From: a virus
Lineage: Duplodnaviria > Caudoviricetes
Virus record (IMG/VR): IMGVR_UViG_3300032007_000071
Location: 1-64,000 of that record
Length of the DNA: 64,000 bases
Direction: 5' to 3' (one strand)
Positions 6,928-56,814 of the stretch are shown piece after piece. The notes under the pieces are model-generated. The model saw nothing but the letters and a program-made list of their open reading frames with translations, had not been told where the DNA came from and ran no database searches. Each line of letters begins with the position of its first letter. The first letter of the stretch is position 1. The translations under genes and the position numbers were made by a program.

Positions 6928-8868
6928 CTAACCGAACATGGCGATATTCCCGAATCTTCCTCTCAGTGTCCCTCCGACTTTACTTCGTCCGTCACCACAT
7001 ACATCGACGCCGATAACAAGGTCGTCGAGGGCATCGGTGATGTCGGTTCGTGTACGGGGGTCTCCGCCTAACGATCCCTCGGAGGTCGCTTTGAGTTTTT
7101 CTTTACTTTTGTCCTTGCGAAAATCATCGAGCACTCCACAGTTCTCGATAGCCGCTATGAGGTATTCATTGTATCCTGGCGAACCGTTAATGCAAATCCA
7201 GAATGGGGTACCACTGGCACCGGCCAGGATGTCGTTGATGAATTGGAACTTTCGAGCGTGTTTCCACGGTGCACCGAAGTAGCCTGCATCCGGGTCTATC
7301 TTCCAGCCGAGCGATGTTAGTTCGTTGGCCACCACTCGGTCGAAACGTGAGTCCTCGCCATTTTCTACGGCGTAGGCCGTGGCACCACCCTGCTTGATGG
7401 TACTGGAATAGTAGAACAAAATATCTTTACACCCCATACGTTTCAGCGGCCCGTAGTAATCGTCGAAATCACGAATAAGGCTTCGCAACTTACGGTTGTT
7501 CATGGTGAAGAAAGAACGGAGGATAAAGAGCGTCGGTCTGTTGTTCCAGGTACGCAGTTGTCCGACCACCATGCAGTTCAGATTGGCGTTGCAGTCGATG
7601 GCGATACGCAACGGCAGGGTCGGGTCCAAATCTACATCGCATAGGCAGTTGAGCACCGAAGCCTCACATTGCTTCAGGTCCAATTCTTCCGTCTCGTATT
7701 CGGTAGGATAACGGTGTACGTCCAAGGCAGTACCCTTGCGCTTCACGGTGAACTTATCGGCAAGAAGATCGTAGGTGTTCGTTTTTATGGCCGACACATC
7801 ATCGGGGTTGTAGGTATGGATAGATGCGTCGAAATTGGCATAGTAGCCATCCTTTGCGCTGCGTGCCATACGTCCCAATACTTGTATCTCGAACATCACC
7901 CTCGGAAGCTGACGTTCAAGACTACGAATGAAGTCGAGCGACACCATGTTAAGGTTCTCTATGGTGCTCCAGTTCCAGAACACAACGCTTTTGCTTCTGA
8001 GCGCATTGAGCTTGCGCAGGTAGTTGTCATTCTGTGCCAATCGTACAGCAAGCTTCGGATCATGCTTCTCCAAGTATTTCAACTCGGCCAGCATCTCAGC
8101 TATCTGCTTATTGACCTCTGTGGTCTCGTTTTCTTTCTCTTTCTCCCACTCACATTGAGCCTGGCTGAGTCCTGCATCACTTACCCATAATTGTGACAAC
8201 CAATAGGGGTTCCTGTCTGTTGTACCGTATCCATAACGCTTCGCTTCCGTCTTGCGTGCCGACTCTGGCATGAAGTCACCACGAAGGGTGGGCAGCACCT
8301 CTTCTTTTACTCTCTGCCAAGGAAGGTATTTTGTCTCGTCACCTACGAGCGCAGCAAGGTTGAGACCGTTGGCAGACCCTTGCCGGACAGCCATACTCAA
8401 CATCTGCCAAACGAAGCCATTGGAGAAGTGTACGCAATTCTCCCACACTCTCGGTTTGGCCAATGGTGTATCCCAATGTAACTTCGCTGGTGCCTGTCCG
8501 AGAAAGTAGAAACCCTCGAAACCGAGTTGGTTGACAACCTTTAGAGCGTTGGGCATGGTACGCGTGTAGAGCTGTTTGGCGCTCATTCCGACGAAACCAC
8601 CCATCTGCCTGGGCATACCTAAGACACACTTCATCATGTGAAGGCCGATGTAAGAGGTCTTACCGAAACCGCGGGCGGCACGCACGTAAGTGGTGCGTGC
8701 CTGCCAGTTGTACATTTCCAGCTGGGCCCGATGCAGGTATATCTTATGCACGCCGTCTCCGGCAAGGTCTATCTCGCCGCCATCGTCCTTGGCACGCTCG
8801 ACATCGGGCATCATACGAGCCTCCAGTTTGTCACTGCTCCTGTCGAGATTCGTCCCCACTCTGCTCAT
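6928..8868 (-). CDS. terL: Terminase large subunit
   Basis: Walker A ARGFGKT, Walker B LVGDETKY, C-terminal RNase H-like nuclease (IAIDCN...DITDALDD). Confidence 0.9.
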   Translation of the reverse strand: MSRVGTNLDRSSDKLEARMMPDVERAKDDGGEIDLAGDGVHKIYLHRAQLEMYNWQARTTYVRAARGFGKTSYIGLHMMKCVLGMPRQMGGFVGMSAKQLYTRTMPNALKVVNQLGFEGFYFLGQAPAKLHWDTPLAKPRVWENCVHFSNGFVWQMLSMAVRQGSANGLNLAALVGDETKYLPWQRVKEEVLPTLRGDFMPESARKTEAKRYGYGTTDRNPYWLSQLWVSDAGLSQAQCEWEKEKENETTEVNKQIAEMLAELKYLEKHDPKLAVRLAQNDNYLRKLNALRSKSVVFWNWSTIENLNMVSLDFIRSLERQLPRVMFEIQVLGRMARSAKDGYYANFDASIHTYNPDDVSAIKTNTYDLLADKFTVKRKGTALDVHRYPTEYETEELDLKQCEASVLNCLCDVDLDPTLPLRIAIDCNANLNCMVVGQLRTWNNRPTLFILRSFFTMNNRKLRSLIRDFDDYYGPLKRMGCKDILFYYSSTIKQGGATAYAVENGEDSRFDRVVANELTSLGWKIDPDAGYFGAPWKHARKFQFINDILAGASGTPFWICINGSPGYNEYLIAAIENCGVLDDFRKDKSKEKLKATSEGSLGGDPRTRTDITDALDDLVIGVDVCGDGRSKVGGTLRGRFGNIAMFG

Positions 8869-11450: not shown

Positions 11451-12623
11451 CTATATTCCTTTCGGCATCTTCACGCCGTAGTGCTCTCCCGCCTTGACAA
11501 TGCTCTTAGTCACGCGTCCGCCGAGGGCGATGAGCTCCTTGATGTTCAGTCCCCACTGCTTCTTGCGCTCCGGGGTCGCCTCCGGCCGTGGGTCACGCAG
11601 CCACTTCTGGAGATAGGAGATGCGCTTTTTCTTCTCCTCGTCGGTCATCGTCTTTTCGGACTCCGCCTTCTTATGGTGCGACCGCTTCGGCTTTGTTGTT
11701 CCCTTTTTGTCGTCGGTGGGGATTGTTACCTTCGGCTTCGGGTCTGCGACCTTCCCCGTCTCGGGATCGACGAGATGCGCCATGCCGAGGTCGTCGAGGA
11801 CCACATGCCCCGTGGCCACTACCCTCCCCCACTCGTCATCCAGTTCCTTGCGGAGGGCGGCGATGCGGTTGTCGATCTTCACGGCAGCTTTCGCCCACCG
11901 CTCCCGTTCGGTGGCTGTTGATTGAGGATCGTCGAGGAGCAACCGCATGTTAGTGCGTGCCGTGCCGAGGTCGTTCATCAGAGCACCATATTGTGCGGCC
12001 CGCTTCTGGGTGTCCTCGGGAAGGAGATGGATATACTGGTCGATATGCTTCGGCCGGGGCACGATGGTATTGAGGTCGGTCGTCAACAACTTGGTGTTTT
12101 GTGCCACTTTCTTGGTGTCCTGTGACAGATTATTGTCACTCGGTGACGGATTTTCGTCTTTTGCCAGCTTCTCTTTCGGGGGCCGTCCCCTACCCCTCCG
12201 TTTGGGTTCCACTTCTGGAGACGGCTTTTCTGCATCCGACGGCACCGGCTTCTGGGGCGCTACCGACTCTGGGGTGGTCGTGAGCTTCGGTCGGAACGTC
12301 GTGAGCACGTCGATGATATGGAGCACACTCCGCTTCACCGACTTCTTATAGATGGCTTCGGGGAGCCAGGTGTCGGTGGCTCTCGCAAAGGACGTCATCA
12401 GTTTCACGCCCTTCATGAAGGCCTCCTGCTCCTCGGCGCTCCACGCCCCGCTCATCTGCATCACGTCCTGCACCCTCGCCAGTGGTTCCCCGGTCTTGGG
12501 GACGAGGATCGGTGCCTGACGTTTCAGCCACTCCCCTACCCTTTCGGCCAACTTCAGACGCTCGTCTTCGGTCATGTTGTCGTAGCGTTTCAGCCACTCC
12601 CCTACCGTTATTCTTTTGATCAT
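11451..12623 (-). CDS. Hypothetical protein with AT-hook-like motif
   Basis: 390 aa; KRRGRGRPPK in a Pro-rich linker; first gene behind the promoter at 12653-12689. Confidence 0.7.
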   Translation of the reverse strand: MIKRITVGEWLKRYDNMTEDERLKLAERVGEWLKRQAPILVPKTGEPLARVQDVMQMSGAWSAEEQEAFMKGVKLMTSFARATDTWLPEAIYKKSVKRSVLHIIDVLTTFRPKLTTTPESVAPQKPVPSDAEKPSPEVEPKRRGRGRPPKEKLAKDENPSPSDNNLSQDTKKVAQNTKLLTTDLNTIVPRPKHIDQYIHLLPEDTQKRAAQYGALMNDLGTARTNMRLLLDDPQSTATERERWAKAAVKIDNRIAALRKELDDEWGRVVATGHVVLDDLGMAHLVDPETGKVADPKPKVTIPTDDKKGTTKPKRSHHKKAESEKTMTDEEKKKRISYLQKWLRDPRPEATPERKKQWGLNIKELIALGGRVTKSIVKAGEHYGVKMPKGI

Positions 12624-12779: not shown

Positions 12780-12847
12780 CCACAGCTACAACAAAAAGAG
12801 CGATGGGTATCGCTCAACGATTATTCATTTTTAAAAGCTACAATAAT

Positions 12848-13711
12848 ATGGTAAAGAAACAGCGTACTCACGAGCTGCGTCATATCGTGGCCGTGTCCAA
12901 CAACAAAGGTGGGGCAGGCAAGACCTCTACCGTGCTCAACCTTGCGTCAGCCATCTCCCGTCGTGTGGAGGGTTATCGGGTGCTCGTCATCGACTGCGAT
13001 CCGCAGCACAACCTCTCCCAACTGCTGAAATGGGAGGACAAGATGGAACTCGACGGCAACCCCACCATTTTTAATGCACTCTGCAACCAACAGGGGCTCC
13101 CCGTTTATAAGGCACAAAACGGACTTTACTTCACCCCGGCCAGTATGAAGCTCAACGGCATCGACGTCTTCCTCTCGCAGCTGCCCAACCCTAACAAAGC
13201 ACTCCAGGAACTCTTGGAACGGCCTATCGACGACCGTACCACAACCCTACTCGGTGACACCATCGGGGAAAAGCAGTCGGTGCTCTCCCCTACCATCGCC
13301 GATAGCTTCGACTTCGTGTTCCTCGACACACAGCCTGCCATGAGCCGCATGACCTACAACGCCCTTTATGCGGCCGACGGGGTTATCATCACGACCGAGC
13401 TCGAGGAGACAAGTATCAGTGGTATGGTCAACGTGGCCGTTGCTGCCGGGAAAGTGATTGCCGATACCGGGAAACTCAATATACAAGGAATCCTGATCAC
13501 CAAGTCGGATGCCCGCTTGCGTATTGCCAAACACTACGAACCGCAGATCCGCCAGTCGTTTTGTGAGACGTTCCGCACCGTCATCCGTCAGAGCAAGGAC
13601 ATATCGGAGAGTCGTGCCCTGCATGAGGACGTGTTTACTTCTTATGCCGGTGGACGTGCCGCCGAGGACTTCATCGCCCTGGCCAACGAGTATCTGGAGA
13701 AGTTTGCTTAA
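12848..13711 (+). CDS. parA: ParA/Soj partition ATPase (type Ib-like, no N-terminal HTH)
   Basis: Deviant Walker A NNKGGAGKT, VIDCDPQ, FLDTQP; ATG at 12848 lies downstream of the promoter. Confidence 0.92.
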   Translation: MVKKQRTHELRHIVAVSNNKGGAGKTSTVLNLASAISRRVEGYRVLVIDCDPQHNLSQLLKWEDKMELDGNPTIFNALCNQQGLPVYKAQNGLYFTPASMKLNGIDVFLSQLPNPNKALQELLERPIDDRTTTLLGDTIGEKQSVLSPTIADSFDFVFLDTQPAMSRMTYNALYAADGVIITTELEETSISGMVNVAVAAGKVIADTGKLNIQGILITKSDARLRIAKHYEPQIRQSFCETFRTVIRQSKDISESRALHEDVFTSYAGGRAAEDFIALANEYLEKFA

Positions 13712-16173: not shown

Positions 16174-16790
16174 ACTTCCGTTTTTGTCGGGATCTCCCTG
16201 GGAAAAGAGAGACTTCCGTTTTTGTCGGGAAATCAAGACCTATATATTTGTCCCCCAAGGCTATAAATCTGTCTTCAACGGGAAGTTATAAGAATGTCCC
16301 CAGGTTCACATTCTCGTTATCAGTCTGATAATAGCATAGTTACGTATTTGTCGTGGAAGTTGTGTTTTTCCGACCGCTTTGATTATCAATGAGTTATAGT
16401 TTTCCGACAAAAACGGAACTAAAAAAATCTCTTTATTTATTTTATTTATTACTATATATATTATATATTTATAGGTACGCGTAACTTGCTGATAATCAAA
16501 GGTTAGCCGTGTAGTTTACCGACAAAACCGTAGCTTTTTACCGACAAAAGCGGAAGTATTTACCGACAAAAGCGGAGCTTTTCTCCGACAAAAGCGGAAG
16601 TATTTGCCGACAAAAACGGAGGTCTATTCCGACAAAAACGGAGGTGGGGACAGATTCAGAGTTTTCTGTCCTTGCAGTACGACGCATTTCTCCGACAAGA
16701 AAGTAACTTGATTAAAAAGTTTCAAGTGTTAATATTTTGCAAGTTGCTGAAAATAAACAAGAAAACACTTGTCAGTTTACCGACAAATTA
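16174..16790. promoter_or_regulatory. Plasmid-type replication origin: iterons plus AT-rich element
   Basis: ccgacaaaa(a/g)cggaag iterons: two inverted (16174, 16212), one at 16402, six at about 22-bp period (16518-16645), one inside the rep promoter (16779); AT-rich stretch 16420-16475. Confidence 0.85.
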
Positions 16791-16791
16791 G

Positions 16792-16799
16792 TAACTTTG
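16792..16799 (+). promoter_or_regulatory. -7 element of the rep promoter
   Basis: TAacTTTG about 65 nt upstream of the rep ATG, with an iteron immediately upstream. Confidence 0.65.
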
Positions 16800-16862
16800 C
16801 CGTGCAATAACACCAATGAAGCTACAACACGTTGGTGTTCACCACATTAAAAAGCTACTATT

Positions 16863-17858
16863 ATGGCAAGAAAAACTCGCAAGGCCGAGCAGCTCAAACA
16901 AGAGATTGTCAACAGTGTGCCTGTAGAACAGCGTGAGATGATTACGCAGCCAATCACATTCACCTATCTCAATGGGGAAATGACGATGTTACAGACGCGC
17001 ATACAGACGATGATCATGGAGAAGCTGCAAGAGCGTATCGCCAATGCTCTTCAGAAGAGAGCGAAGGGTGGATTCACCGGGGAGCTGTTCACGGATGACG
17101 ACTTCGCGCCGCTACCAAACGGACACACGAAGTACCTCACGTTTGAGGTGAAATACTCCGAGTTGGGCGTGGAGCCTTCACACTATGAGGACATCGACAA
17201 AGCAGCACTCGCTATGCAGTCGATTATCCACTCAAAAGAGTTGACCGACGAACATGGAAAGAAATACGTCGAGTACACGGTGGTTTTTGACAAGGTAACG
17301 ATCCCCGTCAAGACAAAGGGTAGGGTAGAGCGACGTGACAGCATCAAGCTGCGGATGTTGCCGGAAACGGCACATGACCTGTTCAACATCATTCCCTACC
17401 ACCGCTATCTCAAAGATGCTGTATTCCTCTTTAGCAGTGGTTATTCGGGGCGTATATATCTTCTCATCAATGCCAACAAACGACTCGGCACTTGGAAAAT
17501 CTCCTATGAGAAACTTCGCAAGATTTTGCTCGCAAGTTATGACAATGACACAAAGCAGCTGTCAGTAGAGAAATACCCGGAGGTCTATGATTTCAAGCGT
17601 CGTGTGCTCGACGTGGCCAAAAAGGAGATTGATAAAGCCGCCGACCGCGTGGACTGCACCTTTGACTATGAGCTGGAATACCCTCATGGCAAGCACCGTG
17701 GAACACCTGAATACGTCGTGTTCCATATCCACATGACCGACTTGGGAAATCGCATCCTCCAGAAGAAGCTCGACTGCAAGCCGGCAGAGGCCATAGAGAT
17801 AAAGGAGGAAAACGAACCAAAGAATACGAACCCTATAAATGATATGAGCAAATGGTAA
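16863..17858 (+). CDS. Plasmid replication initiator (Rep_3/RepB-like winged-helix)
   Basis: QPITFTYL..MTMLQTRI; FSSGYSGRIYLLI; KYPEVYDFKRRVLDVAKKEI pattern of Rep_3 proteins; directly downstream of iterons. Confidence 0.85.
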   Translation: MARKTRKAEQLKQEIVNSVPVEQREMITQPITFTYLNGEMTMLQTRIQTMIMEKLQERIANALQKRAKGGFTGELFTDDDFAPLPNGHTKYLTFEVKYSELGVEPSHYEDIDKAALAMQSIIHSKELTDEHGKKYVEYTVVFDKVTIPVKTKGRVERRDSIKLRMLPETAHDLFNIIPYHRYLKDAVFLFSSGYSGRIYLLINANKRLGTWKISYEKLRKILLASYDNDTKQLSVEKYPEVYDFKRRVLDVAKKEIDKAADRVDCTFDYELEYPHGKHRGTPEYVVFHIHMTDLGNRILQKKLDCKPAEAIEIKEENEPKNTNPINDMSKW

Positions 17859-18751
17859 AAAAGCAAACCCCCAATTACCCCCAGCTCTGGCAGCAGTGCC
17901 TGGCAACCATCAGAAGCCAATACCCCAAGGGGGAGAAATACGACCACTGGTTCAGTGTGTGGTTCGGTGACGTGGCACTCGATGCCTACGATCCCGACAA
18001 ACGGCAGCTGCGGTTACGGGTGCCGTCACGCTACGTCTATGAGTTCCTTGAAAGCTATATGCTCAAACCGCTCAGAGCGGCCCTACAAGCCACGTTCGGG
18101 GAGCAGGTGGCACTGACGTACCGCATCATGCCGCAAGCCCCGTCATTTGCGGATATGGCCGCTTATCTGCAACATCAGTCGGGTGGGGGAGCACGACGCG
18201 ACAACCGCATCCATCTCGACAATGCTAAGGAACGGCTCGAGGACGGTCTGCGCTATTTCCTGAAAGATAAGCCGATGGAGTGGGTGAGCGGCTACGAGGA
18301 CGTGGTGAAGTTCCTCACCGACAACGACCGCCGGGGACTGCTCATCGTGGGGACACCGGGACTTGGCAAGTCGCTCATCGCCTGTCGCATCCTCCCCGTA
18401 CTACTCGCCAACGGCGTGAAGACGCCGCCCGTGGTGAGGGCCACCGACCTGCGGAAGCGGTTAGAGGAACTCAAACGCGAGCGGGTGGTCATCATCGACG
18501 ACCTCGGCAAGGAGCCCCGCAAACACTATGGCGACACCGATCAGTCTTTCTTCGAGCTCTGCGACAATGCCGAGCGCACGGGGGCGATCCTGATCATCAC
18601 CACGAATCTCGCTACCACGCCCACCGACGACCCCCGCTACTCCGATGACATCGAGACACGCTACGGAGAAGCCGTGCTCAGTCGGCTGAAGGCCATCACG
18701 CACGTCGCTGTCTTTGAGGGCAACGGACTGAGGGAGGAGGAGAAGAAGTAG
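17852..18751 (+). CDS. DnaA N-terminal domain fused to a DnaC/IstB-like AAA+ ATPase (putative helicase loader)
   Basis: N-terminus LWQQCLATI...WF..V...LRVPSRYVYEFLE like DnaA domain I; Walker A GTPGLGKS, Walker B IIDDLGKE, IITTN, SRL finger. Confidence 0.75.
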   Translation: MVKKQTPNYPQLWQQCLATIRSQYPKGEKYDHWFSVWFGDVALDAYDPDKRQLRLRVPSRYVYEFLESYMLKPLRAALQATFGEQVALTYRIMPQAPSFADMAAYLQHQSGGGARRDNRIHLDNAKERLEDGLRYFLKDKPMEWVSGYEDVVKFLTDNDRRGLLIVGTPGLGKSLIACRILPVLLANGVKTPPVVRATDLRKRLEELKRERVVIIDDLGKEPRKHYGDTDQSFFELCDNAERTGAILIITTNLATTPTDDPRYSDDIETRYGEAVLSRLKAITHVAVFEGNGLREEEKK

Positions 18752-18756
18752 AAGAC

Positions 18757-19347
18757 CTATTCGCTTCGTTCCCGGCAACGTTTCTGACGACGCTGCCATT
18801 CCCGCCGCATCGCTTCTACATACACGTCGTCGGTGCGGTATTCTTTGCAGAACGCCTCGATCATCTCCACCTGGGCATAACGCTCCCCCTTGTGCGCTTG
18901 CTGGTACTCCTTGCTGAAGACCCCTACGGCCTGCCAGAACGCCTCCCGGATGAGCCGTAGGAGCGATGCTGCCTGCTGCTGGCCAAAGCTCGTGTCACTG
19001 TCCCACGGATGTACCGTGCCGTCCTCGTACATGGCATACGGGGGACAGGCCACGGGGAGGTACTGGACAAACAGCTCCCGCGTGACGCCGAATACCTTCT
19101 CCACGCTCTGCGCGTCCATCTCCAGCCCTACCTCCAGGGCAGCGTGCCAGGTATCGCAGATCACGTTACCGGGCACGACATCAGGGTGGAGCTCATCGTC
19201 GGCAGGCATCTCCATCACCGCTTGAACTCCATCTATATTCTGCACTTCTATCACCGGGTTATCTTTCACCCGTTTCGGCCCGCCCAGTGTCCTGCGTGCC
19301 CATCCTCGCATATAATCTGTTATTTTAAGCCAGCAAATCGGTTCCAT
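18757..19347 (-). CDS. Hypothetical protein
   Basis: 196-aa ORF, convergent with the rep operon. Confidence 0.65.
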   Translation of the reverse strand: MEPICWLKITDYMRGWARRTLGGPKRVKDNPVIEVQNIDGVQAVMEMPADDELHPDVVPGNVICDTWHAALEVGLEMDAQSVEKVFGVTRELFVQYLPVACPPYAMYEDGTVHPWDSDTSFGQQQAASLLRLIREAFWQAVGVFSKEYQQAHKGERYAQVEMIEAFCKEYRTDDVYVEAMRREWQRRQKRCRERSE

Positions 19348-20049
19348 TCTTAGTCACTCTTTGGTCAGTCTGGAAAGGCTATAAGCGTATAACTTACTCA
19401 TTTCCAACTACAAAGGTACAAAATATTCCGTCAACATCCAAGTGCTCAGCCATCTTTAATCGTTTGAATCGTCACTCAAAATCCACTCAAACGAAAAGGC
19501 TACTGATTATCAACGAGTTACAACGAGCGTCGAGAAAAATGGCTATTTCTGTGAGTGGCTCTTGAATTTATGGCCCAGAGTTCTCAAAGACTTAACTACT
19601 TAGTTATCAGCCAAATAGAAATCCGTTGCGCACGAAGGGAGAGAAATACCCCTATTTTTGGTGAAACTCCTCTCTTCTATTTTTTAATCACACACATGCG
19701 GCAAATTCCCCGCACCCCAATCAAAATAAATAATAGGTTATAAAAATAAGAAAAGAAGTTGATTATCAGATAGTTATATATTATATAATATATTACGTCG
19801 TAAAATTTTAAATTAAAATTAGAATATATAAGTAATACTTATACTAAATAACCGCGCAGATTTTTTGTAAATCGTTGAAAACCAACGAGTTACAAGCGGC
19901 AAAACGGAATCCGTCAATTCAAGACAAACCGCAAAGCGATGATGTAACACGCTGATAAACAAACTATTGCACGTTTGAACGGCAACTTAAAACGAGGATG
20001 GGTGCAATTAAAACGGCTGCATTGTTGGCAGTCTCCCGGTTTCTTCGTA

Positions 20050-20205
20050 CCTTTGCAGTAGGTAATCACAGCTTTGAATCTTCAATAGGCATTTGTCTTT
20101 GGCTCGAAAGCATGAAGTATATACCGGATGGCCGAGTACTATCCGTCACGCGTCGCCGCTCCCTTGTTGTAGCTTTTGGGGGAAGGCGGCGCGTTCTTCT
20201 TTGAT
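20050..20205 (+). ncRNA. Candidate small regulatory RNA
   Basis: TAccTTTG promoter at 20050, hairpin cggatgg/ctatccg, then a strong terminator-like hairpin 20148-20194 with loop GTTGTAGCTTTT and a T-rich tail; no credible ORF. Confidence 0.55.
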
Positions 20206-20238
20206 AGCCATTGATGTTTTTGTGCCACATGTATGCGC

Positions 20239-20275
20239 TTGCCCTTGACTTCAAGGCGCTCGCACCCTATCTTAG
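20239..20275 (+). promoter_or_regulatory. Putative late promoter (GCCCTTGAC extended -33)
   Basis: TTGCCCTTGACTTC, 20 nt from CTTG to TAtcTTAG, ahead of the spanin-like gene. Confidence 0.65.
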
Positions 20276-20293
20276 CGACAAAAAACAGAATTT

Positions 20294-20776
20294 ATGGTAA
20301 GACAGAATCCCTATTATAACAACGACCCACGGCCGTTCCTCCTCCTGCTCTATGCGATGCTGGTGATGATGTTCCTCGCCCTGTTCGGTGGCTGCACCAC
20401 CACCCGTTACGTCCAGGTGCCGGTGAGACATACCGACACGCTCCGTCTCGTCCATGAGCGGCATGACAGCGTATGGCTGCACGACAGTATCTACCAGCGT
20501 GAGTACATGCGTGGCGATACCGTCTACCGCTACATCGACCGATGGCACAACCAGTACATCAAGCAGCTCCTCCGTGACACCGCCTATATCTCCCGTCGTG
20601 ACACCGTGCCGGTGCCTTACCCCGTGGAGAAGAAGGTCCCCGCCCAGCTCGCGTGGCATCAGCAGGCACGGCTCTGGCTGGCCAACCTCGTCCTCGTGGC
20701 ACTCGCCGTGGCTGCCGGGGTATGGATCATCAGAAAACGGAGCTGGTGGCTGGAGAAGATCCGGAAGCTGCTGTAA
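20294..20776 (+). CDS. Candidate unimolecular spanin (lipoprotein with C-terminal TM helix)
   Basis: Lipobox LFGGC, beta-rich DT/DS repeats, C-terminal TMD LWLANLVLVALAVAAGVWII followed by basic residues. Confidence 0.6.
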   Translation: MVRQNPYYNNDPRPFLLLLYAMLVMMFLALFGGCTTTRYVQVPVRHTDTLRLVHERHDSVWLHDSIYQREYMRGDTVYRYIDRWHNQYIKQLLRDTAYISRRDTVPVPYPVEKKVPAQLAWHQQARLWLANLVLVALAVAAGVWIIRKRSWWLEKIRKLL

Positions 20777-20789
20777 GCCAGTTCCCCAT

Positions 20790-21225
20790 CGGTCGCAGTG
20801 CTCCCTTATTTGGGGGCGCACTTCGTGCTTGAAATTTTACTTAAAATTTGGCCTTAAAATTTTACTTAAAATTTGGCTGGCGCGATGATGGGCGGTCGCA
20901 GAGCTCCCTTATTTGGGGGCGCTCCGCTTGAAATTATATTTAAAATTTATATTTAAAATTTTATTTAGAATTGGCTGGCGCGGTGCTTGTTTCCGCATGG
21001 ACCCTATCCGCATGAAAGGGTGGCAGGAAAATTTTAAATTCAATTCTAAATAATAATTCTAAATATAATTTCAAGCGAAGCGACCAGAAGCAGCGCGAAG
21101 CGCTCCAAGCAATCGGTGGGCAGGAAAATTTTAAGTCAAATTTTAAGTAAGAATTTTAAGTAAAATTTTAAGCGGAGCGACCCCATAAAAAGCGAAGCGC
21201 CCATCAGCAAGGGAGCTTGCGACCG
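20790..21225 (+). repeat. Modular AT-rich inverted-repeat element, copy C (2 left + 2 right arms)
   Basis: Same arm and core motifs as copies A, B, D-G. Confidence 0.9.
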
Positions 21226-21259
21226 ACAAAACGAATACGAAAACAAAATATAGACAACT

Positions 21260-21529
21260 ATGAAGCAACTTGCATTATCCGAGCTCCGGCGTGTCGCCGA
21301 GCGGTTCACAGGAGCTCACGAGCGCATCCCCTGGCGGGTGTGGTACGTCGCCGCCAACAACGGCGATGTCATCCGTGGCGAGGAGGTCATCACCCTCAGT
21401 GTCGATGTGCCGCCCAACTGCCCCGGTGCCTACCCCTCCCGACTGGTACAGTTCACCGCCAGCGGCCAGACCCGCCGCCTCCGTGACTGCTGTATACTAA
21501 GGGCTGACGACTACGAGTTGGTCGTGTGA
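21260..21529 (+). CDS. Hypothetical protein
   Basis: 89-aa ORF with an A-rich leader (gacaactatg). Confidence 0.65.
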   Translation: MKQLALSELRRVAERFTGAHERIPWRVWYVAANNGDVIRGEEVITLSVDVPPNCPGAYPSRLVQFTASGQTRRLRDCCILRADDYELVV

Positions 21530-21618
21530 TGGAGTTAGGAGCTATTAGGAGTTAGGAGATAGGAGTTAGGAGTTAGGAGTTAATTTGGCACACACGATTA
21601 AAAACAATTAATAATATC

Positions 21619-22119
21619 ATGGAACCCAAGAAGTATTTACATAAACTCGCGCAAGCCGTGAGCCGACGCAGTGGCATCAGTATCAACACCTGCTTGGTGG
21701 TACTCCCTGCCCTCTTCGACGAGATGCGCTACATGCTCTGTGAGGGCGACTACCGTTGCGTGACGGTGGAGAGCTTCGGCACCCTCACCGTCAAGGAGCG
21801 GCCCCGCCGTCACTACCGCCGCCTCTTCCCCGACGGCACGAGTCAGCTCATCGAACTGCCACCGAAGCTCATCGTGAAGTTTCTCCCCACCGCCAACCTG
21901 CGGAGGGAGGTGGAGTCCTCCAGTTTCGATCCCACCCGCCAGTCGTTCGTCATCCATCCCGACGATCATGGCATCCGCACGCGGAAGGCGGTGAAGAGTA
22001 AGGCGAAGAAGCACGACCTGTTCTTTGCCATCGACGGCGTGGTGAAACGTGACGACCCGGTGCCCGACCACCCCAAGCGCATCCGTATCATCCGTGGAAA
22101 GGACAGCTCAGAGGAATAA
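21619..22119 (+). CDS. HU/IHF-family DNA-binding protein
   Basis: VTVESFGTLTVKERPRR...IELPPKLIVKFLPTANLR, HU fold signature. Confidence 0.8.
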   Translation: MEPKKYLHKLAQAVSRRSGISINTCLVVLPALFDEMRYMLCEGDYRCVTVESFGTLTVKERPRRHYRRLFPDGTSQLIELPPKLIVKFLPTANLRREVESSSFDPTRQSFVIHPDDHGIRTRKAVKSKAKKHDLFFAIDGVVKRDDPVPDHPKRIRIIRGKDSSEE

Positions 22120-22201
22120 GCGGTCTTTGGCACACAGCTTTCACGATGATTAAGCGAACGGGGCACGGAGCGTCCGAGCAGTCAGTAAGGCTGAATTTTC
22201 A

Positions 22202-22268
22202 AATCAGTACTACTGATTTCCAGCAATCAGTACTACTGTTTTCTCGCAATCAGTACTACTGATTTCTC
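22202..22268. repeat. Three tandem 23-bp palindromic units
   Basis: aatcagtactactgatt core, three times. Confidence 0.8.
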
Positions 22269-22290
22269 GGGGCCCCTTTCGGGGGTTGGG

Positions 22291-22715
22291 TGGGGCGCAC
22301 TTCGTGCTTGAAATTTTACTTAAAATTTGGACTTAAAATTTTACTTAAAATTTTACTGCCACCGATTGCTCTGGGCGCTTCGCGCTGCTTCCCTGGGTTC
22401 GGGGCGCTTCGCTTGAAATTGGATTTATAATTTTTATTTAGAATTTGATTTAAAATTTTCCTGCCCACCCTTTCCTACGGATAGGCGGATAGCCGAACTG
22501 GATGATCCTATGGGAACGCGTACCGCGCCATCCAAATTTTAAGTAAAATTTTAAGTAAGAATTTTAAGTAAAATTTTGAGCGGAGCGACCATACAGCAAG
22601 GGAGCTTGCGACCGACAATCATCGCTCCAGCCAATTCTAAATAAAATTATAAATAGAAATTCTAAATAAAATTTCAAGCGGAGCGCCCAAAAAAAAGAGG
22701 AAGCGGAGCGACCGG
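22291..22715 (-). repeat. Modular AT-rich inverted-repeat element, copy D (core reversed)
   Basis: cctgcccaccctttcctacggatagg-core-cgcgccatccaaatttt between inverted arms. Confidence 0.9.
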
Positions 22716-22768
22716 AATATAGAAAACACTTTTTGTACCACATAATTAACAATTAAACACAAAAGACT

Positions 22769-23305
22769 ATGGCTACCATCAAGTATCAAGTCAAGGAGAA
22801 CAATACCATCGGTACTCACTCCTTCTATGCACAAGCAGTCAGTTACAGCACCCTCGACATCTCCGACCTCGCGTCAGAGGTGGCCGAGAACATCGGCATC
22901 TCGCCGTCTACCGTGAAGATGGTGCTCGAACGTTACGCTGTCGTGGCAGAGCGCAGCATCATGCGTGGCCACCGTGTGAAGCTCGGCGACCTCCTCACCT
23001 TCTATCCGCAGATCAGTGCCTCCGTCAAGGATGAGCTCGACAAGGAGGGACACGTCGTGAAGAAAGCCACAGCCGACATGCTGAAGATCTCCGGCTGTAA
23101 GAGCACCATCGGTGCCACCATCTCCCAGGCGGTGCAGCAGCAGTTCGCCGCCAAGGTGTCGTGGAAGCGTGCCGGCGAAGACGATGCTGTGACGAAGGAC
23201 GACGGCACAACGGGTGGCAGCACGCCTGGCGCATCCGGCAGTTCGTCGGAGGGTGGCAGCGCTTCCGGTTCGGGCGACTCAGGTTCTTACGGAACCAACG
23301 AGTGA
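22769..23305 (+). CDS. Bacteroidota HU-like DNA-binding protein with low-complexity tail
   Basis: DLASEVAENIGISPSTVKMVL...GHRVKLGDLLTFYPQIS typical of Bacteroidota HU variants. Confidence 0.78.
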   Translation: MATIKYQVKENNTIGTHSFYAQAVSYSTLDISDLASEVAENIGISPSTVKMVLERYAVVAERSIMRGHRVKLGDLLTFYPQISASVKDELDKEGHVVKKATADMLKISGCKSTIGATISQAVQQQFAAKVSWKRAGEDDAVTKDDGTTGGSTPGASGSSSEGGSASGSGDSGSYGTNE

Positions 23306-23333
23306 CGACAGGGGCTAAGACCCAATTCTATTA

Positions 23334-23366
23334 AGAGGACTGCTTAGCGCAACAGTCCTCTTTTTT
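23334..23366 (+). terminator. Intrinsic terminator
   Basis: aagaggactg..cagtcctctttttt. Confidence 0.8.
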
Positions 23367-23376
23367 ATAGATATAG

Positions 23377-23473
23377 GGTGAAATAAAAACACATATAAAA
23401 TGTTAAATTTGTAGGCTTGAAGAAAATTTCTCCCGAAATTGTTTGGAGGTGAAATAAAAACACATTACCTTTG
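23377..23473 (+). promoter_or_regulatory. Promoter with duplicated 18-bp operator-like repeat
   Basis: TTTG(23442)-20 nt-TAccTTTG(23466); ggtgaaataaaaacacat at 23377 and 23448. Confidence 0.7.
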
Positions 23474-23500
23474 CAGCGAACAATTAAAGCTACAACAATT

Positions 23501-24049
23501 ATGGATACAGCAAAAGTGAAGATGACGCAGGATGCGCTCTATAAATACCTAACCGACCACGACGTGAAAATCTCACGCATAGCGGAGCTAATGGGGTTAG
23601 GTCCGAATTGCGTTATATCATGTTTTCGGCATAATAACAACAGTCATGGGAATCCGAGATATTTCAGTGTGGAGAATATTCAGAAGCTGAACGAAGCGCT
23701 TCCTAAACTCGCTATGCAACTGCGATTTAGCTTGATAACCTTTGGTAGTGACAAGATGTACGCCAATAGGCATGGTCGTGTATATGATCCTGGGATGATC
23801 GAGCCACTCAACGAACTTGGCGAGCTTATGAATCTAATTGGCCTTACCGGACGTTTGTTAGGATGGAGTAAGTCTAAGAAAATGAGTGTGTTCAGCTCTC
23901 CAACAAGTAAGGCTTATGGGCATATCACCGAGTCGGACATAACAACTATAAATACGGAAATAATTTCCGTTGCAGGTGTATTGGAGAATGTAGAAATAGT
24001 TCCTGATGACAATGCCTATGATGGCAACCCTACCTCTTCTAAGGAATAA
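23501..24049 (+). CDS. Hypothetical, probable HTH transcriptional regulator
   Basis: Monocistronic; N-terminal KISRIAELMGLGPNCVISCF HTH-like; two internally similar halves. Confidence 0.6.
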   Translation: MDTAKVKMTQDALYKYLTDHDVKISRIAELMGLGPNCVISCFRHNNNSHGNPRYFSVENIQKLNEALPKLAMQLRFSLITFGSDKMYANRHGRVYDPGMIEPLNELGELMNLIGLTGRLLGWSKSKKMSVFSSPTSKAYGHITESDITTINTEIISVAGVLENVEIVPDDNAYDGNPTSSKE

Positions 24050-24111
24050 GAGACACCTTATTATATATATGTATTCGCAAAGGTAATATATACTTGTTTT
24101 ACTTTTGATAA

Positions 24112-38045: not shown

Positions 38046-41000
38046 ATGACTATATTACAGAGATTAAGGAATAACGTCGAGGCGATCAAGTACGCCTTGA
38101 CGGGACGTGGCAATGCCAGCGCACTGGATATGTATTCCGGCTTCGGTGGCATCGGAGCCGTGCTCTATGCCGGACGCCCCAAGGAGCAGTGGCCCAAGAG
38201 TATGCTGCCCTATTGGGACGACATAGAGCGCTTGAAGCAGGTGATTGCATCGATGGGCGGTGGCGTGGATAGCTTTGTGGATTCACTGAAGTCGTCCACC
38301 CTCACCGCATACTATACGCCTATGAAGTTTGTGAGCGGCATTGCGAAAGCCCTCGACAGCAAGTTGCTGATTGGCGACCGCGTCCTCGACCCCGCTGCTG
38401 GCAGTGGTGCGTTCGTGGTTGGTCTCCTCAACTGGTGTCATCAGGATCCCAGCAAGATTGTGGCCTACGAGAAAGACCTGCTGACGGGTGTGATACTCAA
38501 TGCCCGTATGAAACGTGACAGCGACATCGTGGATGTGAGGATCAACGGGTTTGAGACGATCTCGAAAGATGAGCTGGGCACCTACGACCTCGTGACAACC
38601 AATGTGCCGTTTGGTGACTTCGCTATCTATGACCCCGACTATACGGTTAGCAAGGACACGGAGTTGAGAAAGGCAGCTAAGTATATCCATCGCTACTACG
38701 TGCTGAAAGGTCTCGACTGTTTGCGTGACGGAGGTATCGAGGCGTACATCATCACGAGCAACTATCTCAACCATGACTTCACGCAGGTCGTGAAAGCCTT
38801 GGAGCAAGCCCGTCTGATTGGTGCCTACCGGTTGCCGAATAACCTCTTCAAGGAGGCGGGCACGGAGGTGGGTACTGACCTACTGGTGTTGCAGAAAGAC
38901 GAGCAGAAAGGCGGACTGACCGTGGACGAGACGATGCTGATCACGCCCTATACCGAGGACGGCTGTTACACAAACATGTACTTCGTTATGAACCCGGACC
39001 ACGTCATCGCCACCCATACGGAGAAAGGAACGGACGCTTACGGCAAGCCGACCTTCATCTATAAGTATGAGGGCGAAGAGCAAGCGATGGCCAAAGCGAT
39101 GCGAATGGTGCTGAGCAAGGACTTGGCGGACAACGTGGACTTCGAGTTGTACAAGAAAGGGGCTAAGAAGAAGGCCGAGAACAAGCAGCAGAAGCAGGAG
39201 AAGCAGCAGACAAACAGTAAGAACCGCTACCGCTATACGGACAACGAGACGGGCGACCTGATTAAGTCTATCGCCGAGGTGTATAACCAACTCTTCATTA
39301 CCGAGGCCACGACGTTCACCGAGGACACCGAAGACCGCAAGCAACTCAACGAGCTCTATGACAAGTTCGTGGAGAAGCACGGAGCCTTCAACAGTAACCC
39401 CTTCAACAAAGGGGCGGTGACGGACATCGCCAGGGAGCTGCTGAGTCTGGAGGTGAAGGACGGCAAGCAGTGGGTGAAGGCCGACATCTTCTACAAGCCC
39501 GTGGCGTTCGACACCAGCGAGCTGCATAGTGCCGATACCCCGCAGGAAGCACTGGCTCAGAGCTTGAACGACTGTGGCTATCCCGACGTGGAGTACATGA
39601 TGGCACTCACGGGACTGACCGAGACGGAGCTGATGACGAAACTCGACGGCGATGTCTATTACAATCCCCTCACGAACAAGTACGAGATTACCGCTAAGTT
39701 CATCAGTGGCAATGTCGTGGAGAAAGCCAAGGCGATCCGCAAGGCTTTCGGTATCAACGAGGACGAGCGTGACGGCAAGGACGAACTAACCAAGACCATT
39801 GACCCGAGGGTGGTCCGTTCACTGAGAGCCTTGGAGGATGCGGTGCCCACCCCGATCCCCTTTGAGGAATTGGACTTCAACCTCGGTGAGCGGTGGATCG
39901 ACACCAAGCTCTATGAGCAGTTCGGTTCCGAGCTTTTCTCCATCCCCGGTGGAAATGGTATCTGTGATCGGGTTGACCTCGAAGTGAAGTACGACGCTAA
40001 CCTCGACCAGTTCGTCGCCAGTGCGGAAAACTACTGGAATGAGAAGGTGACCACGCAGTATTACGTGAAGAGTGAGTGCTCGCATTATAACGGCATCGAC
40101 CTCTTCGTCTATGCGCTGGAAGACACCTGTCCGAAGATGTGGAGATACAAGCGCGACTCCCTGGGCTGCAAAGAGACCGACGGAAACGGCAAGTACCTCA
40201 AAGAGGAAGACCCCGAGAAGACACAGCTCGCCAACAGTAAGATTGCGGAGATACGTAACGCTTGGGTTGACTGGCTGATGCGTCAGCCGAGAGAGTTGAA
40301 AGACCAGCTCGCCAAGGAATACAATGAGCGGTTCAACTGCTTCGTCAAGCCCCACTATGACGGCAGCCACCAACGTTTCCCCGGTCTCGACCGAAAGGCA
40401 CTGGAGGAGAAGTATGGCGTGAAAGACCTCTACCAGAGTCAGAAGGACTGCATCTGGATGCTCGTACAGAACCAGGGCGGTATCTGCGACCATGAGGTAG
40501 GCAGTGGCAAGACGCTCATCATGTGTATCGCTGCCCACGAGATGAAGCGGTTGGGCATCGTCCACAAGCCGATGATTATCGGACTGAAGGCGAATGTCGG
40601 TGCCATCGCCGAGACCTACCAGACCGCCTATCCGAACGCCAAGATTCTCTACGCACAGAACAAGGACTTCCACGAGAGTGAGCGCGTCAACTTCTTCAAC
40701 CGCATGAAGAATAACGACTACGACTGCATCATCATGTCGCACGACCAGTTCGGCCGTCTGCCACAGAGCAAGGACGTGCAGCGAAAGATTATCCTCAATG
40801 AGCTGAAGCAGTTGGATGATGCCATGACTGCCGCCAAGGATTATAGCTGGGAGAACAGCCGGGTCATCTTGCGAGGACTGGAGCGAAGGAAGAAGAACCT
40901 TGAAGCCAAGCTCGCGAATGTCGTGGCGGAGATCAACGAAGCCAAGGACGACGTGTCCGACTTCGAGATGATGGGTATCGACCATATCTTTGTGGACGAG

Positions 41001-43034
41001 AGCCACATGTTCAAGAACCTCGGTTTCACTACCCGTCATAACCGTGTGGCAGGGCTCGGCAACAGTGAGGGTTCGAAGCGTGCCTTCAACCTTCTCATGG
41101 CGATCCGCACGATACAGAAGCGCACGGAGAGAGACCTCGGGGCTACCTTCCTTAGTGGTACGACGGTGACCAACTCCCTCACGGAGCTCTATTCTCTCTT
41201 CCGCTATCTGCGGCCACTGGCCATGAAGAAGCAGGGCATCACCTGTTTCGATGCGTGGGCTGCTATCTTCACGAAGAAGAGCACCGAGTTTGAGTTCTCC
41301 ATCACCAACCAGATCATCATGAAGGAGCGGTTCCGCTACTTCATCAAGGTGCCGGAGCTGGCACAGTTCTACAACGAGATCACCGACTTCCGCACGGCGG
41401 AGGATGTGGGTATCGAGCGTCCGAAAAAACACGCCCGGTTGCTGAACATCGAGCCGACCCCCGACCAGCAGGAATATACCCAGACCTTGATGGAGTTTGC
41501 CAAGACCGGCAACTTCTCACTCATCGGCATGGACTATGTCACCGACGCCCAGCAGAAAGCCAAGATGCTCTATGCAACAGATCTGGCCCGCAAGATGAGT
41601 CTCGATATGCGGATGATAGACCCGAGCTATCCCGACCATCCACGGAGCAAGTCGTCGATGTGCGCCAAACTCGTGAAGCAGTATTACGACAAGTACGACA
41701 GCGTGAAAGGTACGCAGCTCATCTTCTCCGACCTCTCTACCTATCAGGGTAAGAACAAAGGTTGGAACGTCTATGAGGACATCAAGCAGAAGCTCGTAGC
41801 GATGGGTATTCCCAGCAGTGAGATCCGTTTCATCCAGGAGTGTAAGAACGATGTGGCGAAGGCGAAGATGGTGCAGGACGTCAACGACGGAAAGGTGAGG
41901 GTACTCTTCGGTTCTACCTCGATGCTCGGCACGGGTGTCAACGCCCAGAAGCGAGTGGTGGCCGTGCATCACCTCGACACGCCGTGGAGACCGTCCGACC
42001 TGGAGCAGCGTGACGGCCGGGCTATCCGTAAGGGTAACGAGGTGGCGAAGCTCTATGCCGACAACACCGTGGATGTCATCATCTACGCTGTGCGCCGTTC
42101 GCTCGACGCTTACAAGTTCGGCTTGCTGAACAACAAGCAGTTGTTTATCTCTCAGCTCAAACGTGGTCAGCTCAGTGTCCGTACCCTCGACGAGGGGTCT
42201 ATGGACGAGAAGAGCGGCATGAACTTCGCCGAGTATATGGCCGTGCTCAGTGGCAACACCGACCTCTTGGAGCGTGCCAAGTTGGAGAAGCGGGTCGCTG
42301 CCTTAGAGTCGGAGCGCAAGGCGTTCTATCGTGACAAATCCGCTCAGACGAAGAAGCAGGAGCGGCTGCGTGAGGACAACGAGCGCAACAAGAAGAATAT
42401 CGCCGATGCCAAGAGCGACCTCGAGAAGTTCAACGCCGTTGTCAAGCGTGACGAAGCCGGACGTGCTATCAGCATGATCACCCTCGACGGCTTCACCCCA
42501 TACGCCAAAGGGAAGGACGGAAAGCTCACCGACAGGGTGCTGACCGCCGACGATGGGGAAGACTTCGACAAGGCTATCGGTGAGCAGCTCATCAAGATAG
42601 ACAAGTCTGCCCGCACCGGTGGAGCGATGCTGACCATCGGCAACGTCTATGGCTTCCCCATCAGTGTGAAGACGAAGCAGTATGACAATGCTTATGACCG
42701 TGAGGTGGAGTTTGAAAACAACTTCTACGTCAGTGGGCAGCGACTGGTCTATGGCATCAACAACGGCCACGGCACCATCAATCGGGTGGCCAAGGGACTG
42801 ACGGGCCGTATGCCGGTGCTCGCCCTGAACCGTCTGCCGGAGGTCATCAGCGGATGGCAGCAGCTCTATGACGAGAACGAGTCACGCATCAAGCAGCTCG
42901 ACACGATCATTCAGCAACCGTGGGGCAAGGACGCCGAACTCACGAAGTTGCGTACCGACCTCTCCGACCTCGACGTGAAGATTGGGAAGAGCTTGAAAGA
43001 GGATAAGCAGAAAGAGCAGAAGGAAGCAGCGTGA
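38046..43034 (+). CDS. DarB-like N6-adenine methyltransferase / SNF2 helicase fusion
   Basis: SGFGG, MTase motif I DPAAGSG, motif IV NVPF; helicase DHEVGSGKT, DESH, SGT, GVNAQ, QRDGR. Confidence 0.9.
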   Translation: MTILQRLRNNVEAIKYALTGRGNASALDMYSGFGGIGAVLYAGRPKEQWPKSMLPYWDDIERLKQVIASMGGGVDSFVDSLKSSTLTAYYTPMKFVSGIAKALDSKLLIGDRVLDPAAGSGAFVVGLLNWCHQDPSKIVAYEKDLLTGVILNARMKRDSDIVDVRINGFETISKDELGTYDLVTTNVPFGDFAIYDPDYTVSKDTELRKAAKYIHRYYVLKGLDCLRDGGIEAYIITSNYLNHDFTQVVKALEQARLIGAYRLPNNLFKEAGTEVGTDLLVLQKDEQKGGLTVDETMLITPYTEDGCYTNMYFVMNPDHVIATHTEKGTDAYGKPTFIYKYEGEEQAMAKAMRMVLSKDLADNVDFELYKKGAKKKAENKQQKQEKQQTNSKNRYRYTDNETGDLIKSIAEVYNQLFITEATTFTEDTEDRKQLNELYDKFVEKHGAFNSNPFNKGAVTDIARELLSLEVKDGKQWVKADIFYKPVAFDTSELHSADTPQEALAQSLNDCGYPDVEYMMALTGLTETELMTKLDGDVYYNPLTNKYEITAKFISGNVVEKAKAIRKAFGINEDERDGKDELTKTIDPRVVRSLRALEDAVPTPIPFEELDFNLGERWIDTKLYEQFGSELFSIPGGNGICDRVDLEVKYDANLDQFVASAENYWNEKVTTQYYVKSECSHYNGIDLFVYALEDTCPKMWRYKRDSLGCKETDGNGKYLKEEDPEKTQLANSKIAEIRNAWVDWLMRQPRELKDQLAKEYNERFNCFVKPHYDGSHQRFPGLDRKALEEKYGVKDLYQSQKDCIWMLVQNQGGICDHEVGSGKTLIMCIAAHEMKRLGIVHKPMIIGLKANVGAIAETYQTAYPNAKILYAQNKDFHESERVNFFNRMKNNDYDCIIMSHDQFGRLPQSKDVQRKIILNELKQLDDAMTAAKDYSWENSRVILRGLERRKKNLEAKLANVVAEINEAKDDVSDFEMMGIDHIFVDESHMFKNLGFTTRHNRVAGLGNSEGSKRAFNLLMAIRTIQKRTERDLGATFLSGTTVTNSLTELYSLFRYLRPLAMKKQGITCFDAWAAIFTKKSTEFEFSITNQIIMKERFRYFIKVPELAQFYNEITDFRTAEDVGIERPKKHARLLNIEPTPDQQEYTQTLMEFAKTGNFSLIGMDYVTDAQQKAKMLYATDLARKMSLDMRMIDPSYPDHPRSKSSMCAKLVKQYYDKYDSVKGTQLIFSDLSTYQGKNKGWNVYEDIKQKLVAMGIPSSEIRFIQECKNDVAKAKMVQDVNDGKVRVLFGSTSMLGTGVNAQKRVVAVHHLDTPWRPSDLEQRDGRAIRKGNEVAKLYADNTVDVIIYAVRRSLDAYKFGLLNNKQLFISQLKRGQLSVRTLDEGSMDEKSGMNFAEYMAVLSGNTDLLERAKLEKRVAALESERKAFYRDKSAQTKKQERLREDNERNKKNIADAKSDLEKFNAVVKRDEAGRAISMITLDGFTPYAKGKDGKLTDRVLTADDGEDFDKAIGEQLIKIDKSARTGGAMLTIGNVYGFPISVKTKQYDNAYDREVEFENNFYVSGQRLVYGINNGHGTINRVAKGLTGRMPVLALNRLPEVISGWQQLYDENESRIKQLDTIIQQPWGKDAELTKLRTDLSDLDVKIGKSLKEDKQKEQKEAA

Positions 43035-43228: not shown

Positions 43229-43256
43229 TAAATTAAATCAATAAAAGCTACACAAT

Positions 43257-44220: not shown

Positions 44221-44315
44221 TTGCGAATTTCATACGGCAAAGGTTGGAAGTTACAGAAATTCTTCCTATCTTTGCCGTAGCTACAACAAAAATATTCATT
44301 TCAAAAATTAAACCA

Positions 44316-56685: not shown

Positions 56686-56814
56686 GATCGCATATTCTTT
56701 ATGGTTGATACTCTAAAATTTTAACATATAGTTTTGGTGAATATATCTCCAAAACTCTTTGTCATTTCGCACAAAAGTTATACCTTTGTGGCAAAGTTAC
56801 AACAAATATGTGAA

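Follow-up and report, generated by a model that had tools for sequence, protein, structure and literature searches.

What does the short non-coding region just past the putative origin of this element do, and can it act in trans on genes located several kilobases away? The window is a 64-kb stretch out of a 74,073-bp IMG/VR virus record. The original prediction had proposed for this region a small transcript whose last hairpin exposes a loop antisense to a motif repeated in several 5' leaders. We consider it probable, though well short of certain, that the region encodes a trans-acting antisense sRNA of a Bacteroidales phage-plasmid, with the terminator loop as its seed, which represses the element's own genes to control copy number or immunity. 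Transcription, repression rather than activation, and the physiological role are inferred.

Genes of plasmid type and of phage type were found together in the window (Table 1), and the phage-type set also included an anti-restriction protein. The promoters were of the TAnnTTTG type, which is the Bacteroidetes -7 promoter consensus (PMC7366714). Related records were 100-145 kb long, three of them with direct terminal repeats (G001, G002 and G006), and among named genomes the loader gene was found in a Bacteroidaceae MAG from buffalo rumen and in a Prevotella contig. From the two gene types, the promoters, the relatives and the hosts of the loader gene, the element was therefore read as a phage-plasmid of rumen or gut Bacteroidales. 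Its replicon was of the Rep_3 iteron plus loader type, not of the HUH type.

Relatives were gathered by searching viral contigs, GTDB genomes and metagenomes with the loader protein and with an alignment of its relatives, and further ones through a look-up of contigs encoding the 182-aa regulator protein. A blastn search with positions 16500-24100 against phage and plasmid collections gave no match, an exact 17-mer scan of viral contigs gave only chance matches with nothing in common outside the 17-mer, and a promoter-gap-loop pattern search recovered G002 only. Upstream of parA, relatives carried a tmRNA gene and a tRNA-Gln (L037:4357-4666 and L039:2964-3034, both on the minus strand); the tmRNA scored 74.9 bits with Rfam, and its tag predicted by ARAGORN was AKVVNMTPRANMRAAA.

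Table 1. Positions of the features described for the window.
Feature	Position	Strand	Remark
Class I box AGCTACAAC, parA	12784-12792	+	4 nt past parA -7 box; predicted +1 of parA mRNA
Class II box AAAGCTACAAT, parA	12834-12844	+	3 nt ahead of parA ATG (12848)
ParA gene	12848-13711		Plasmid-type
rep-leader hairpin	16809-16839	+	Box displayed in 11-nt loop AAGCUACAACA (16819-16829), predicted
Degenerate class II box AAAAGCTACTATT, rep	16850-16862	+	Directly ahead of rep ATG (16863)
Rep_3-like initiator gene (rep)	16863-17858		Plasmid-type
DnaA_N/IstB-like loader gene	17852-18751		Plasmid-type
AT-rich origin-like block	19730-19990		Conserved AAGAAAAGAAGTTGATTATCA element and GATAAC/GATAAT repeats; equivalents in relatives
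Predicted -7 promoter box of sRNA gene, TAccTTTG	20048-20055	+	Matches TAnnTTTG
Predicted sRNA, ~143 nt	20060-20202	+	Start inferred 4-5 nt past -7 box; end is the T-run
Terminal (terminator) hairpin	20148-20194	+	Matched by covariance model R1
Seed, loop region UUGUUGUAGCUUUU	20164-20177	+	MFE loop 20167-20176
T-run TCTTCTTT	20195-20202	+	Directly 3' of hairpin
Class II box AAAGCTACAACAA, regulator	23486-23498	+	2 nt ahead of ATG (23501), 182-aa putative regulator
DarB-like antirestriction protein	38046-43034		Phage-type
Class II variant AAAGCTACAC	43244-43253	+	3 nt ahead of ATG (43257), 81-aa early ORF
Class I box	44279-44287	+	4 nt past -7 box; heads 19-aa hydrophobic peptide ORF and 241-aa ORF
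Head maturation protease	53662-55701		Phage-type
Variant AAAGTTACAAC	56793-56803	+	Past -7 box; heads coiled-coil ORF (56815-57174) and 1155-aa primase-type gene
CHC2 primase-type gene, 1155 aa	57488-60955		Phage-type

The predicted sRNA gene was located just past the AT-rich iteron origin. A promoter had been proposed at 20050, and the TAccTTTG found at 20048-20055 matches the consensus; the sequence around this box, CTTCGTACCTTTGCA, was identical in G000, G001, G002 and G003. The hairpin at 20148-20194 also folded as had been described, with 10 outer pairs, seven weaker inner pairs and a 10-nt loop UUGUAGCUUU in the minimum free energy structure, and it was directly followed by the T-run. 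Its fold energy was -27.5 kcal/mol (z -2.7). The whole-transcript fold was no more stable than shuffles (z -1.1); the terminal hairpin alone was. The three ORFs that overlap the region had no relative in eight related genomes by tblastn, so that a conserved coding ORF was ruled out as an explanation of the region and the claim that it is non-coding held. Rfam scans of the window gave no relevant match at the gathering score, at E<=10 in local mode or at E<=1 in global mode. The region thus has its own predicted promoter, no conserved ORF, and a GC-rich hairpin with a T-run, as an intergenic sRNA ended by a terminator should have. A scanner for sigma-70 promoters and terminators missed both features, since it allows loops of at most 8 nt and the promoter here is a Bacteroidetes one.

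Two side observations concern the surroundings of this gene. In most relatives one GATAAC/GATAAT repeat was located ~15-20 nt downstream of the predicted sRNA start, and given this position the initiator protein might also gate sRNA transcription. Past the hairpin, an element GCCCTTGA(C/T) was found at 20241-20273 of the window, and it occurred within ~20-70 nt past the sRNA terminator in G000, G004/G009, G007, G003 and L271.

The same hairpin was found, one per genome, in at least 20 divergent relatives (Prevotella/Bacteroidaceae phage-plasmids of 100-145 kb), always past an AT-rich region with GATAAC/GATAAT repeats. It was strong in these relatives, with a loop containing GUUGUAGC(U/A)UU followed by a T-run, and in all members the T-run was present 3' of the hairpin on one strand only, in register with the upstream promoter. 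The sRNA body between the predicted promoter and the hairpin was unconserved, and its length ranged from ~105 to ~460 nt. In G002 the origin-like region and the hairpin were still together though rep and the loader gene were 9 kb away. Through a search of 1.34 Mb with a covariance model built from seven hairpins (R1), we found exactly one copy in each of nine genomes, further metagenome loci, and only three off-site matches, all marginal.

In an alignment of 23 hairpin sequences, 95.7% of the cells were paired and compensatory changes were present in all 12 pairs; none of 500 shuffles reached these values, and slid controls were 36-66% paired. This alignment was fitted to the model, and the covariation figures are therefore somewhat inflated; the folds of the individual hairpins agree with the covariation picture. 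MAFFT alignments of the hairpins were inconsistent with the structure, and the model-based alignment was used in their place. The stems differed between the aligned relatives and the loop GUUGUAGC was invariant in 22 of the 23. What the original prediction had noted is real and strongly conserved, also outside the window.

Some relatives showed additional features around the hairpin. In G005 (L038:8307-8391, plus strand) a tRNA-Tyr(GTA) gene was located between the predicted sRNA promoter and two seed hairpins; here the enzymes of tRNA processing may free the seed RNA from a tRNA-sRNA co-transcript. A U-rich block ttttgatttgttttagtagattagtttttaagtagtttgttttt was common to the otherwise unrelated sRNA bodies of G004/G009 (L037 ~12205-12250) and G005 (L038 ~8490-8535), which could be a protein-binding or second functional module.

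The complement of the loop, AGCTACAAC, was found exactly at 12784, 16820, 23488 and 44279 on the plus strand and, within the hairpin gene itself, at 20166 on the minus strand. All four leader positions given by the original prediction were thus recovered, and the five sites stand against 0.38 expected; at least five were reached in none of 100 shuffles. Allowing up to two mismatches to the 13-mer AAAGCTACAACAA, we found 12 sites against 1.18 expected. Variants had been reported near 12836, 43246 and 56795, and they were confirmed at 12834, 43246 and 56793, the first and last being among these 12; the one at 43246 reads AGCTACACA and lies 4 nt ahead of an ATG. The exact leader sites had been said to lie within about 30 nt downstream of a -7 box, and all four were located even closer, 4-20 nt past a TTTG box.

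The box in the regulator leader (23486-23498) was perfectly complementary to the loop over 13 nt and was the best site of the genome. In the variant box AAAGTTACAAC, a U at the variant position is able to form a G-U pair with the loop; the coiled-coil ORF behind it, at 56815, heads the primase operon. Directly past this variant a minimal ATG-TGA ORF was observed at 56808-56813, 2 nt ahead of the start of the coiled-coil ORF. None of the boxes listed was in front of a virion gene. When the 74-kb genome was scanned by RNAduplex with the 14-nt loop, six of the seven best non-self sites were 5' leaders, and the boxes were predicted to be unpaired or in a loop and thus accessible. The loop alone was used since RNAduplex with the GC-rich flanks gave spurious background; genome-wide 9-mer counts with the loop and stem flanks were likewise too noisy to inform.

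Two box classes were drawn from ten genomes. In class I, GCUACAAC, the box lies 4-6 nt past the -7 box G, on or beside the base predicted to be transcribed first, and class II, AAAGCUACA(A/C), lies 2-7 nt ahead of an ATG that opens a real ORF. Sites of GCTACAAC were located 4-6 nt past TTTG in 16 of 76 cases, against 2 of 71 in the reversed control, and an ATG followed within 1-8 nt at 35 of 67 AAGCTACA-type sites, against 5 of 40 in the control. The distance of class II to the ATG was steady at 2-7 nt, and its distance to the promoter ranged from 14 to more than 50 nt. Class II therefore tracks the ATG and not the promoter, which argues for a role at the RNA level.

The genes with boxes recurred between genomes and comprised parA, rep, the gene of a 170-182 aa protein and a few early genes. 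The parA leader usually held both classes. At rep the class I-type box was often in the loop of a small hairpin, whose stems differed between genomes, and most of the relatives examined had the gene of the 170-182 aa protein 2-3.7 kb downstream from the sRNA. A host-wide start-codon motif was considered as a separate possibility and ruled out, since the start-codon box pattern had 8 matches in the host MAG against 11 in the control. As a side observation, AAGCTACAAC occurred 4 times in the host MAG G010 (3.5 Mb) against 28 times in the reversed control; avoidance of the box by the host genome is possible.

Whether loop and leader motifs change together in relatives had been set as a test of the antisense proposal. 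The loop was invariant save in two lineages, and in both the leader boxes carried the matching change. In G006 the loop reads GUUGUAACU, and AGUUACAAC was present in the parA and rep leaders and at other promoter-proximal sites. In G008 the loop reads GUUGUAGCAUU, and the regulator leader carried AAUGCUACAACG / AAAUGCUACAACG, a 13-nt match; four TGCTACA sites of this genome met the leader test, two of them in clear leaders (rep and regulator), against none of eight AGCTACA sites in a leader. At flanking positions, UUGUUGUAGCU was paired with AGCUACAACAA in G000 and G002 and UUCGUUGUAGCU with AGCUACAACGAA in G001 and G003, but G004 did not follow this at its class I boxes.

A subgroup with two hairpins (G005, L243, L248, L249, L254, L231 and L257) gave a further form of the same correspondence. 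Its loop 1, GUGUAGCU, is the complement of the AGCUACAC start-codon boxes common there, and its loop 2, CGUUGUAGCA, is the complement of the GCUACAACG 5' boxes. A matrix of each genome's own loop against the loops of other genomes separated G006 and G008 only, because the loops are identical in most lineages. The core co-variation thus rests on two lineages, plus flanking positions in some, and some predicted duplexes are only 7-8 nt long, for example at the G001 regulator leader and for loop 1 of the two-hairpin forms. The observations comprise the conserved structure, the positions of the boxes and their complementarity to the loop, with which they co-vary. Covarying stems, a near-invariant loop, loop-box co-variation, two-hairpin forms and the tracking of the ATG all support the trans-antisense reading, in which expression and repression are inferred.

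The putative target with the best box, the 182-aa protein (23501-24049), had no Pfam or PHROG match, and many homologues were found in Prevotella metagenomes. Its structure was predicted confidently (pLDDT 90), and the model had no significant PDB match (Foldseek E>=0.19, VIA-align Z<=4.7). Several weak rows of lambda-repressor/XRE-type HTH proteins over ~60 residues give only a hint, from a predicted model, of an XRE-type HTH. A longer homologue of 298 aa was observed in a chromosomal ENA contig (L273) between unannotated 300-aa and 265-aa genes and with host housekeeping genes (DnaJ, Mur ligase, GAPDH and MscL) as neighbours. In view of this chromosomal context the protein family is not confined to phage-plasmids.

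In the mechanism we propose, the sRNA would be transcribed from its own predicted promoter just past the iteron origin and would end at a predicted intrinsic terminator. The 10-14 nt terminator loop, (U)UGUUGUAGCUUU(U), would be the seed and may pair over 7-13 nt with boxes on the element's own mRNAs. Two kinds of box would be read, GCUACAAC at or near the predicted 5' end and AAAGCUACA 2-7 nt upstream of the start codon. The putative targets comprise a few early genes and the primase operon besides parA, rep and the 170-182 aa protein, which is unannotated and a putative HTH regulator. Where the box adjoins the start codon, pairing is proposed to block 30S binding and so to repress translation. 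A precedent is the Bacteroides sRNA GibS, which can repress by pairing at translation initiation regions without a Shine-Dalgarno (SD) sequence (PMC7366714). For the 5'-terminal box, a role as an entry site, in stability or in early termination is conceivable.

Since the box of the rep leader is predicted to be in a hairpin loop, a loop-loop kiss would form there, as in plasmid copy-control RNAs; we consider such kissing at rep likely, in the absence of binding data. The sRNA gene is physically linked to the origin, so the dose of the sRNA should follow copy number. A dose tied to copy number would place replication and partition under negative feedback, and the early genes would be kept quiet in the plasmid-prophage state. 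This suggests that dose-dependent feedback serves copy-number or incompatibility control, possibly together with early-gene silencing in the plasmid state.

The same boxes could also be DNA operators bound by a sequence-specific protein such as the putative HTH regulator, with the copy in the terminator being one more operator, perhaps for a late-type promoter ~70 nt downstream, and without RNA-RNA pairing. We judge this unlikely, though it is not formally excluded. A fixed place 4-6 nt past the -7 box, overlapping the +1, is the classic position of a repressor, but this holds for class I only, while class II keeps 2-7 nt to the ATG at promoter distances of 14 to more than 50 nt. The best box is in the regulator's own leader, which would fit autoregulation, and the GCCCTTGA element is found past the hairpin in several relatives; on the other hand, the box is a single asymmetric site of 8-11 nt, neither a palindrome nor a repeat. 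Loop-box co-variation would likewise arise from a double-stranded site bound by one protein. Such a site would not have to lie, as the box at the sRNA locus always does, antisense to transcription and in the loop of a hairpin that has covarying stems and is followed by a T-run. The two-hairpin relatives, moreover, put each variant in its own loop, and in several relatives the rep leader, too, displays its box in a hairpin loop, on stems that differ.

Slightly less credible still, in our opinion, is that a protein or the ribosome reads the boxes as RNA signals, such as an element-specific enhancer of translation or stability, and that the sRNA loop is an anti-box which titrates or masks them, so that net activation or a switch would be possible. 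The strict positions at the extreme 5' end and beside the ATG would suit such signals, as would the presence of the same box on many genes of the element and not in the host; there would also be room for other signals in Bacteroidetes, where initiation is not SD-led (PMC7366714). However, no candidate RNA-binding protein was identified, and the sRNA alone accounts for the pattern. The base pairing of the antisense sRNA is still needed in this case, and only the function of the free box differs. Very improbable in our estimation is a DNA-level role of the hairpin in the origin, for single-strand initiation or nicking, or as a mere terminator of an origin-proximal transcript, with a functionless likeness to the leader boxes. 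Rolling-circle origin hairpins likewise combine covarying stems with an invariant loop, and the hairpin found here always adjoins the AT-rich iteron origin, even in G002 with rep and the loader 9 kb off. But every member has its T-run on a single strand, in register with the upstream promoter, the replicon is Rep_3 iteron plus loader and not HUH, and the enrichment, placement and co-variation of the complementary boxes would be left unexplained.

The antisense sRNA, for which there are no expression data, points to a previously undescribed RNA master switch. A wider version of it is possible and remains doubtful to us: one origin-linked sRNA might be the central controller of a whole class of Bacteroidota phage-plasmids, reading two box types through one loop. 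The 5'-end box would then act by a mechanism not yet described for sRNAs in the phylum (e.g. early termination or decay once the nascent 5' end has been captured) and the start-codon box by blocking translation, so that copy number would be coupled to replication, partition, the lysis-lysogeny regulator and anti-defence early genes.

Gut and rumen Bacteroidales phage-plasmids have barely been studied, and very few sRNAs with known targets are available in the phylum. The RNA described here would be a family with its seed in the terminator loop and an unusually clear, computationally defined regulon made up of replication, partition and early genes, a regulator and the lytic primase operon. It would also be a direct model for chaperone-free kissing-loop control in Bacteroidota and could explain copy-number setting and the silence of early genes in elements of 100-145 kb. 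The short, portable pair of box and loop is a possible gene-control tool for Bacteroides and Prevotella. The family is absent from Rfam, and our alignment and model could seed an entry.

Among known systems, the c4 RNA of P1 and P7 (immI; Rfam clan CL00128) is likewise a small RNA of a phage-plasmid whose exposed loops pair in trans with short sites near the ribosome-binding region and repress a phage mRNA. Its two loops, a' and b', match a2 and b2, and the two-hairpin relatives mirror this two-loop layout. In P1, c4 RNA represses Ant synthesis in trans (PMC8546580). The resemblance to P1 C4 in the original prediction stood for function only, that is for the loop-box complementarity of 7-13 nt at the parA, rep, regulator and early-gene leaders; family membership did not stand, since no model of the c4 clan (C4, c4-2 and c4-a1b1) matched the window at the gathering score or at E<=1. 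As a positive control, a locus in the relative G007 (L041:14868-14951, plus strand) scored 42.2 bits on c4-2 (RF02944; gathering score 41). This true c4-2 RNA lies 2.7 kb downstream of the GUUGUAGCUUU hairpin of the same element, so the two RNAs are distinct and co-exist in at least one relative. The new sRNA has its own predicted promoter and terminator, whereas c4 arises by processing of its operon leader. Its seed is in the terminator loop, unlike in c4, and its putative targets, parA and rep among them, belong to at least five transcription units, against one operon for c4.

The CI RNA of satellite phage P4 confers immunity by pairing with short sites that recur on nascent early transcripts. 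This RNA is released by cleavage from the very transcript under its control and brings about premature termination, whereas nothing shows termination by the new sRNA, and the two have no sequence similarity. GibS and RteR (CTnDOT), like the new sRNA, come from Bacteroidota, a phylum without Hfq, and each has a promoter and a terminator of its own. The pairing sites of GibS are translation initiation regions, and RteR acts on an operon of the mobile element that encodes it (PMC7366714). The new sRNA has no sequence relationship to them, and Rfam families of GibS and other Bacteroides sRNAs did not match the window. The seed of GibS is a 5' single-stranded stretch and not a terminator loop, and the boxes at the 5' end of transcripts have no counterpart in GibS or RteR.

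Known properties of the copy-control RNAs CopA of R1, RNA I of ColE1 and the Inc RNA of IncI/IncB plasmids were also used for comparison. These are likewise linked to the origin, with a dose that follows copy number, and make a loop-loop kiss with a rep-leader loop that lowers Rep synthesis, both of which are predicted for the new sRNA. All of them are cis-encoded, fully complementary countertranscripts, whereas a distance of 3-7 kb separates the new sRNA gene from its putative targets (3.3 kb to the rep leader at 16820, 7.4 kb to parA, 3.3 kb to the regulator). A countertranscript of this type was ruled out, as sRNA gene and targets are all on the same strand and the complementarity is only 7-13 nt. 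The new sRNA, unlike copy-control RNAs, also addresses parA, the regulator and early genes, and its host phylum is Bacteroidota. Within antisense regulators encoded by phages and plasmids, the seed in the terminator loop, the two box types, the multi-operon regulon and the Bacteroidota host are distinctive.
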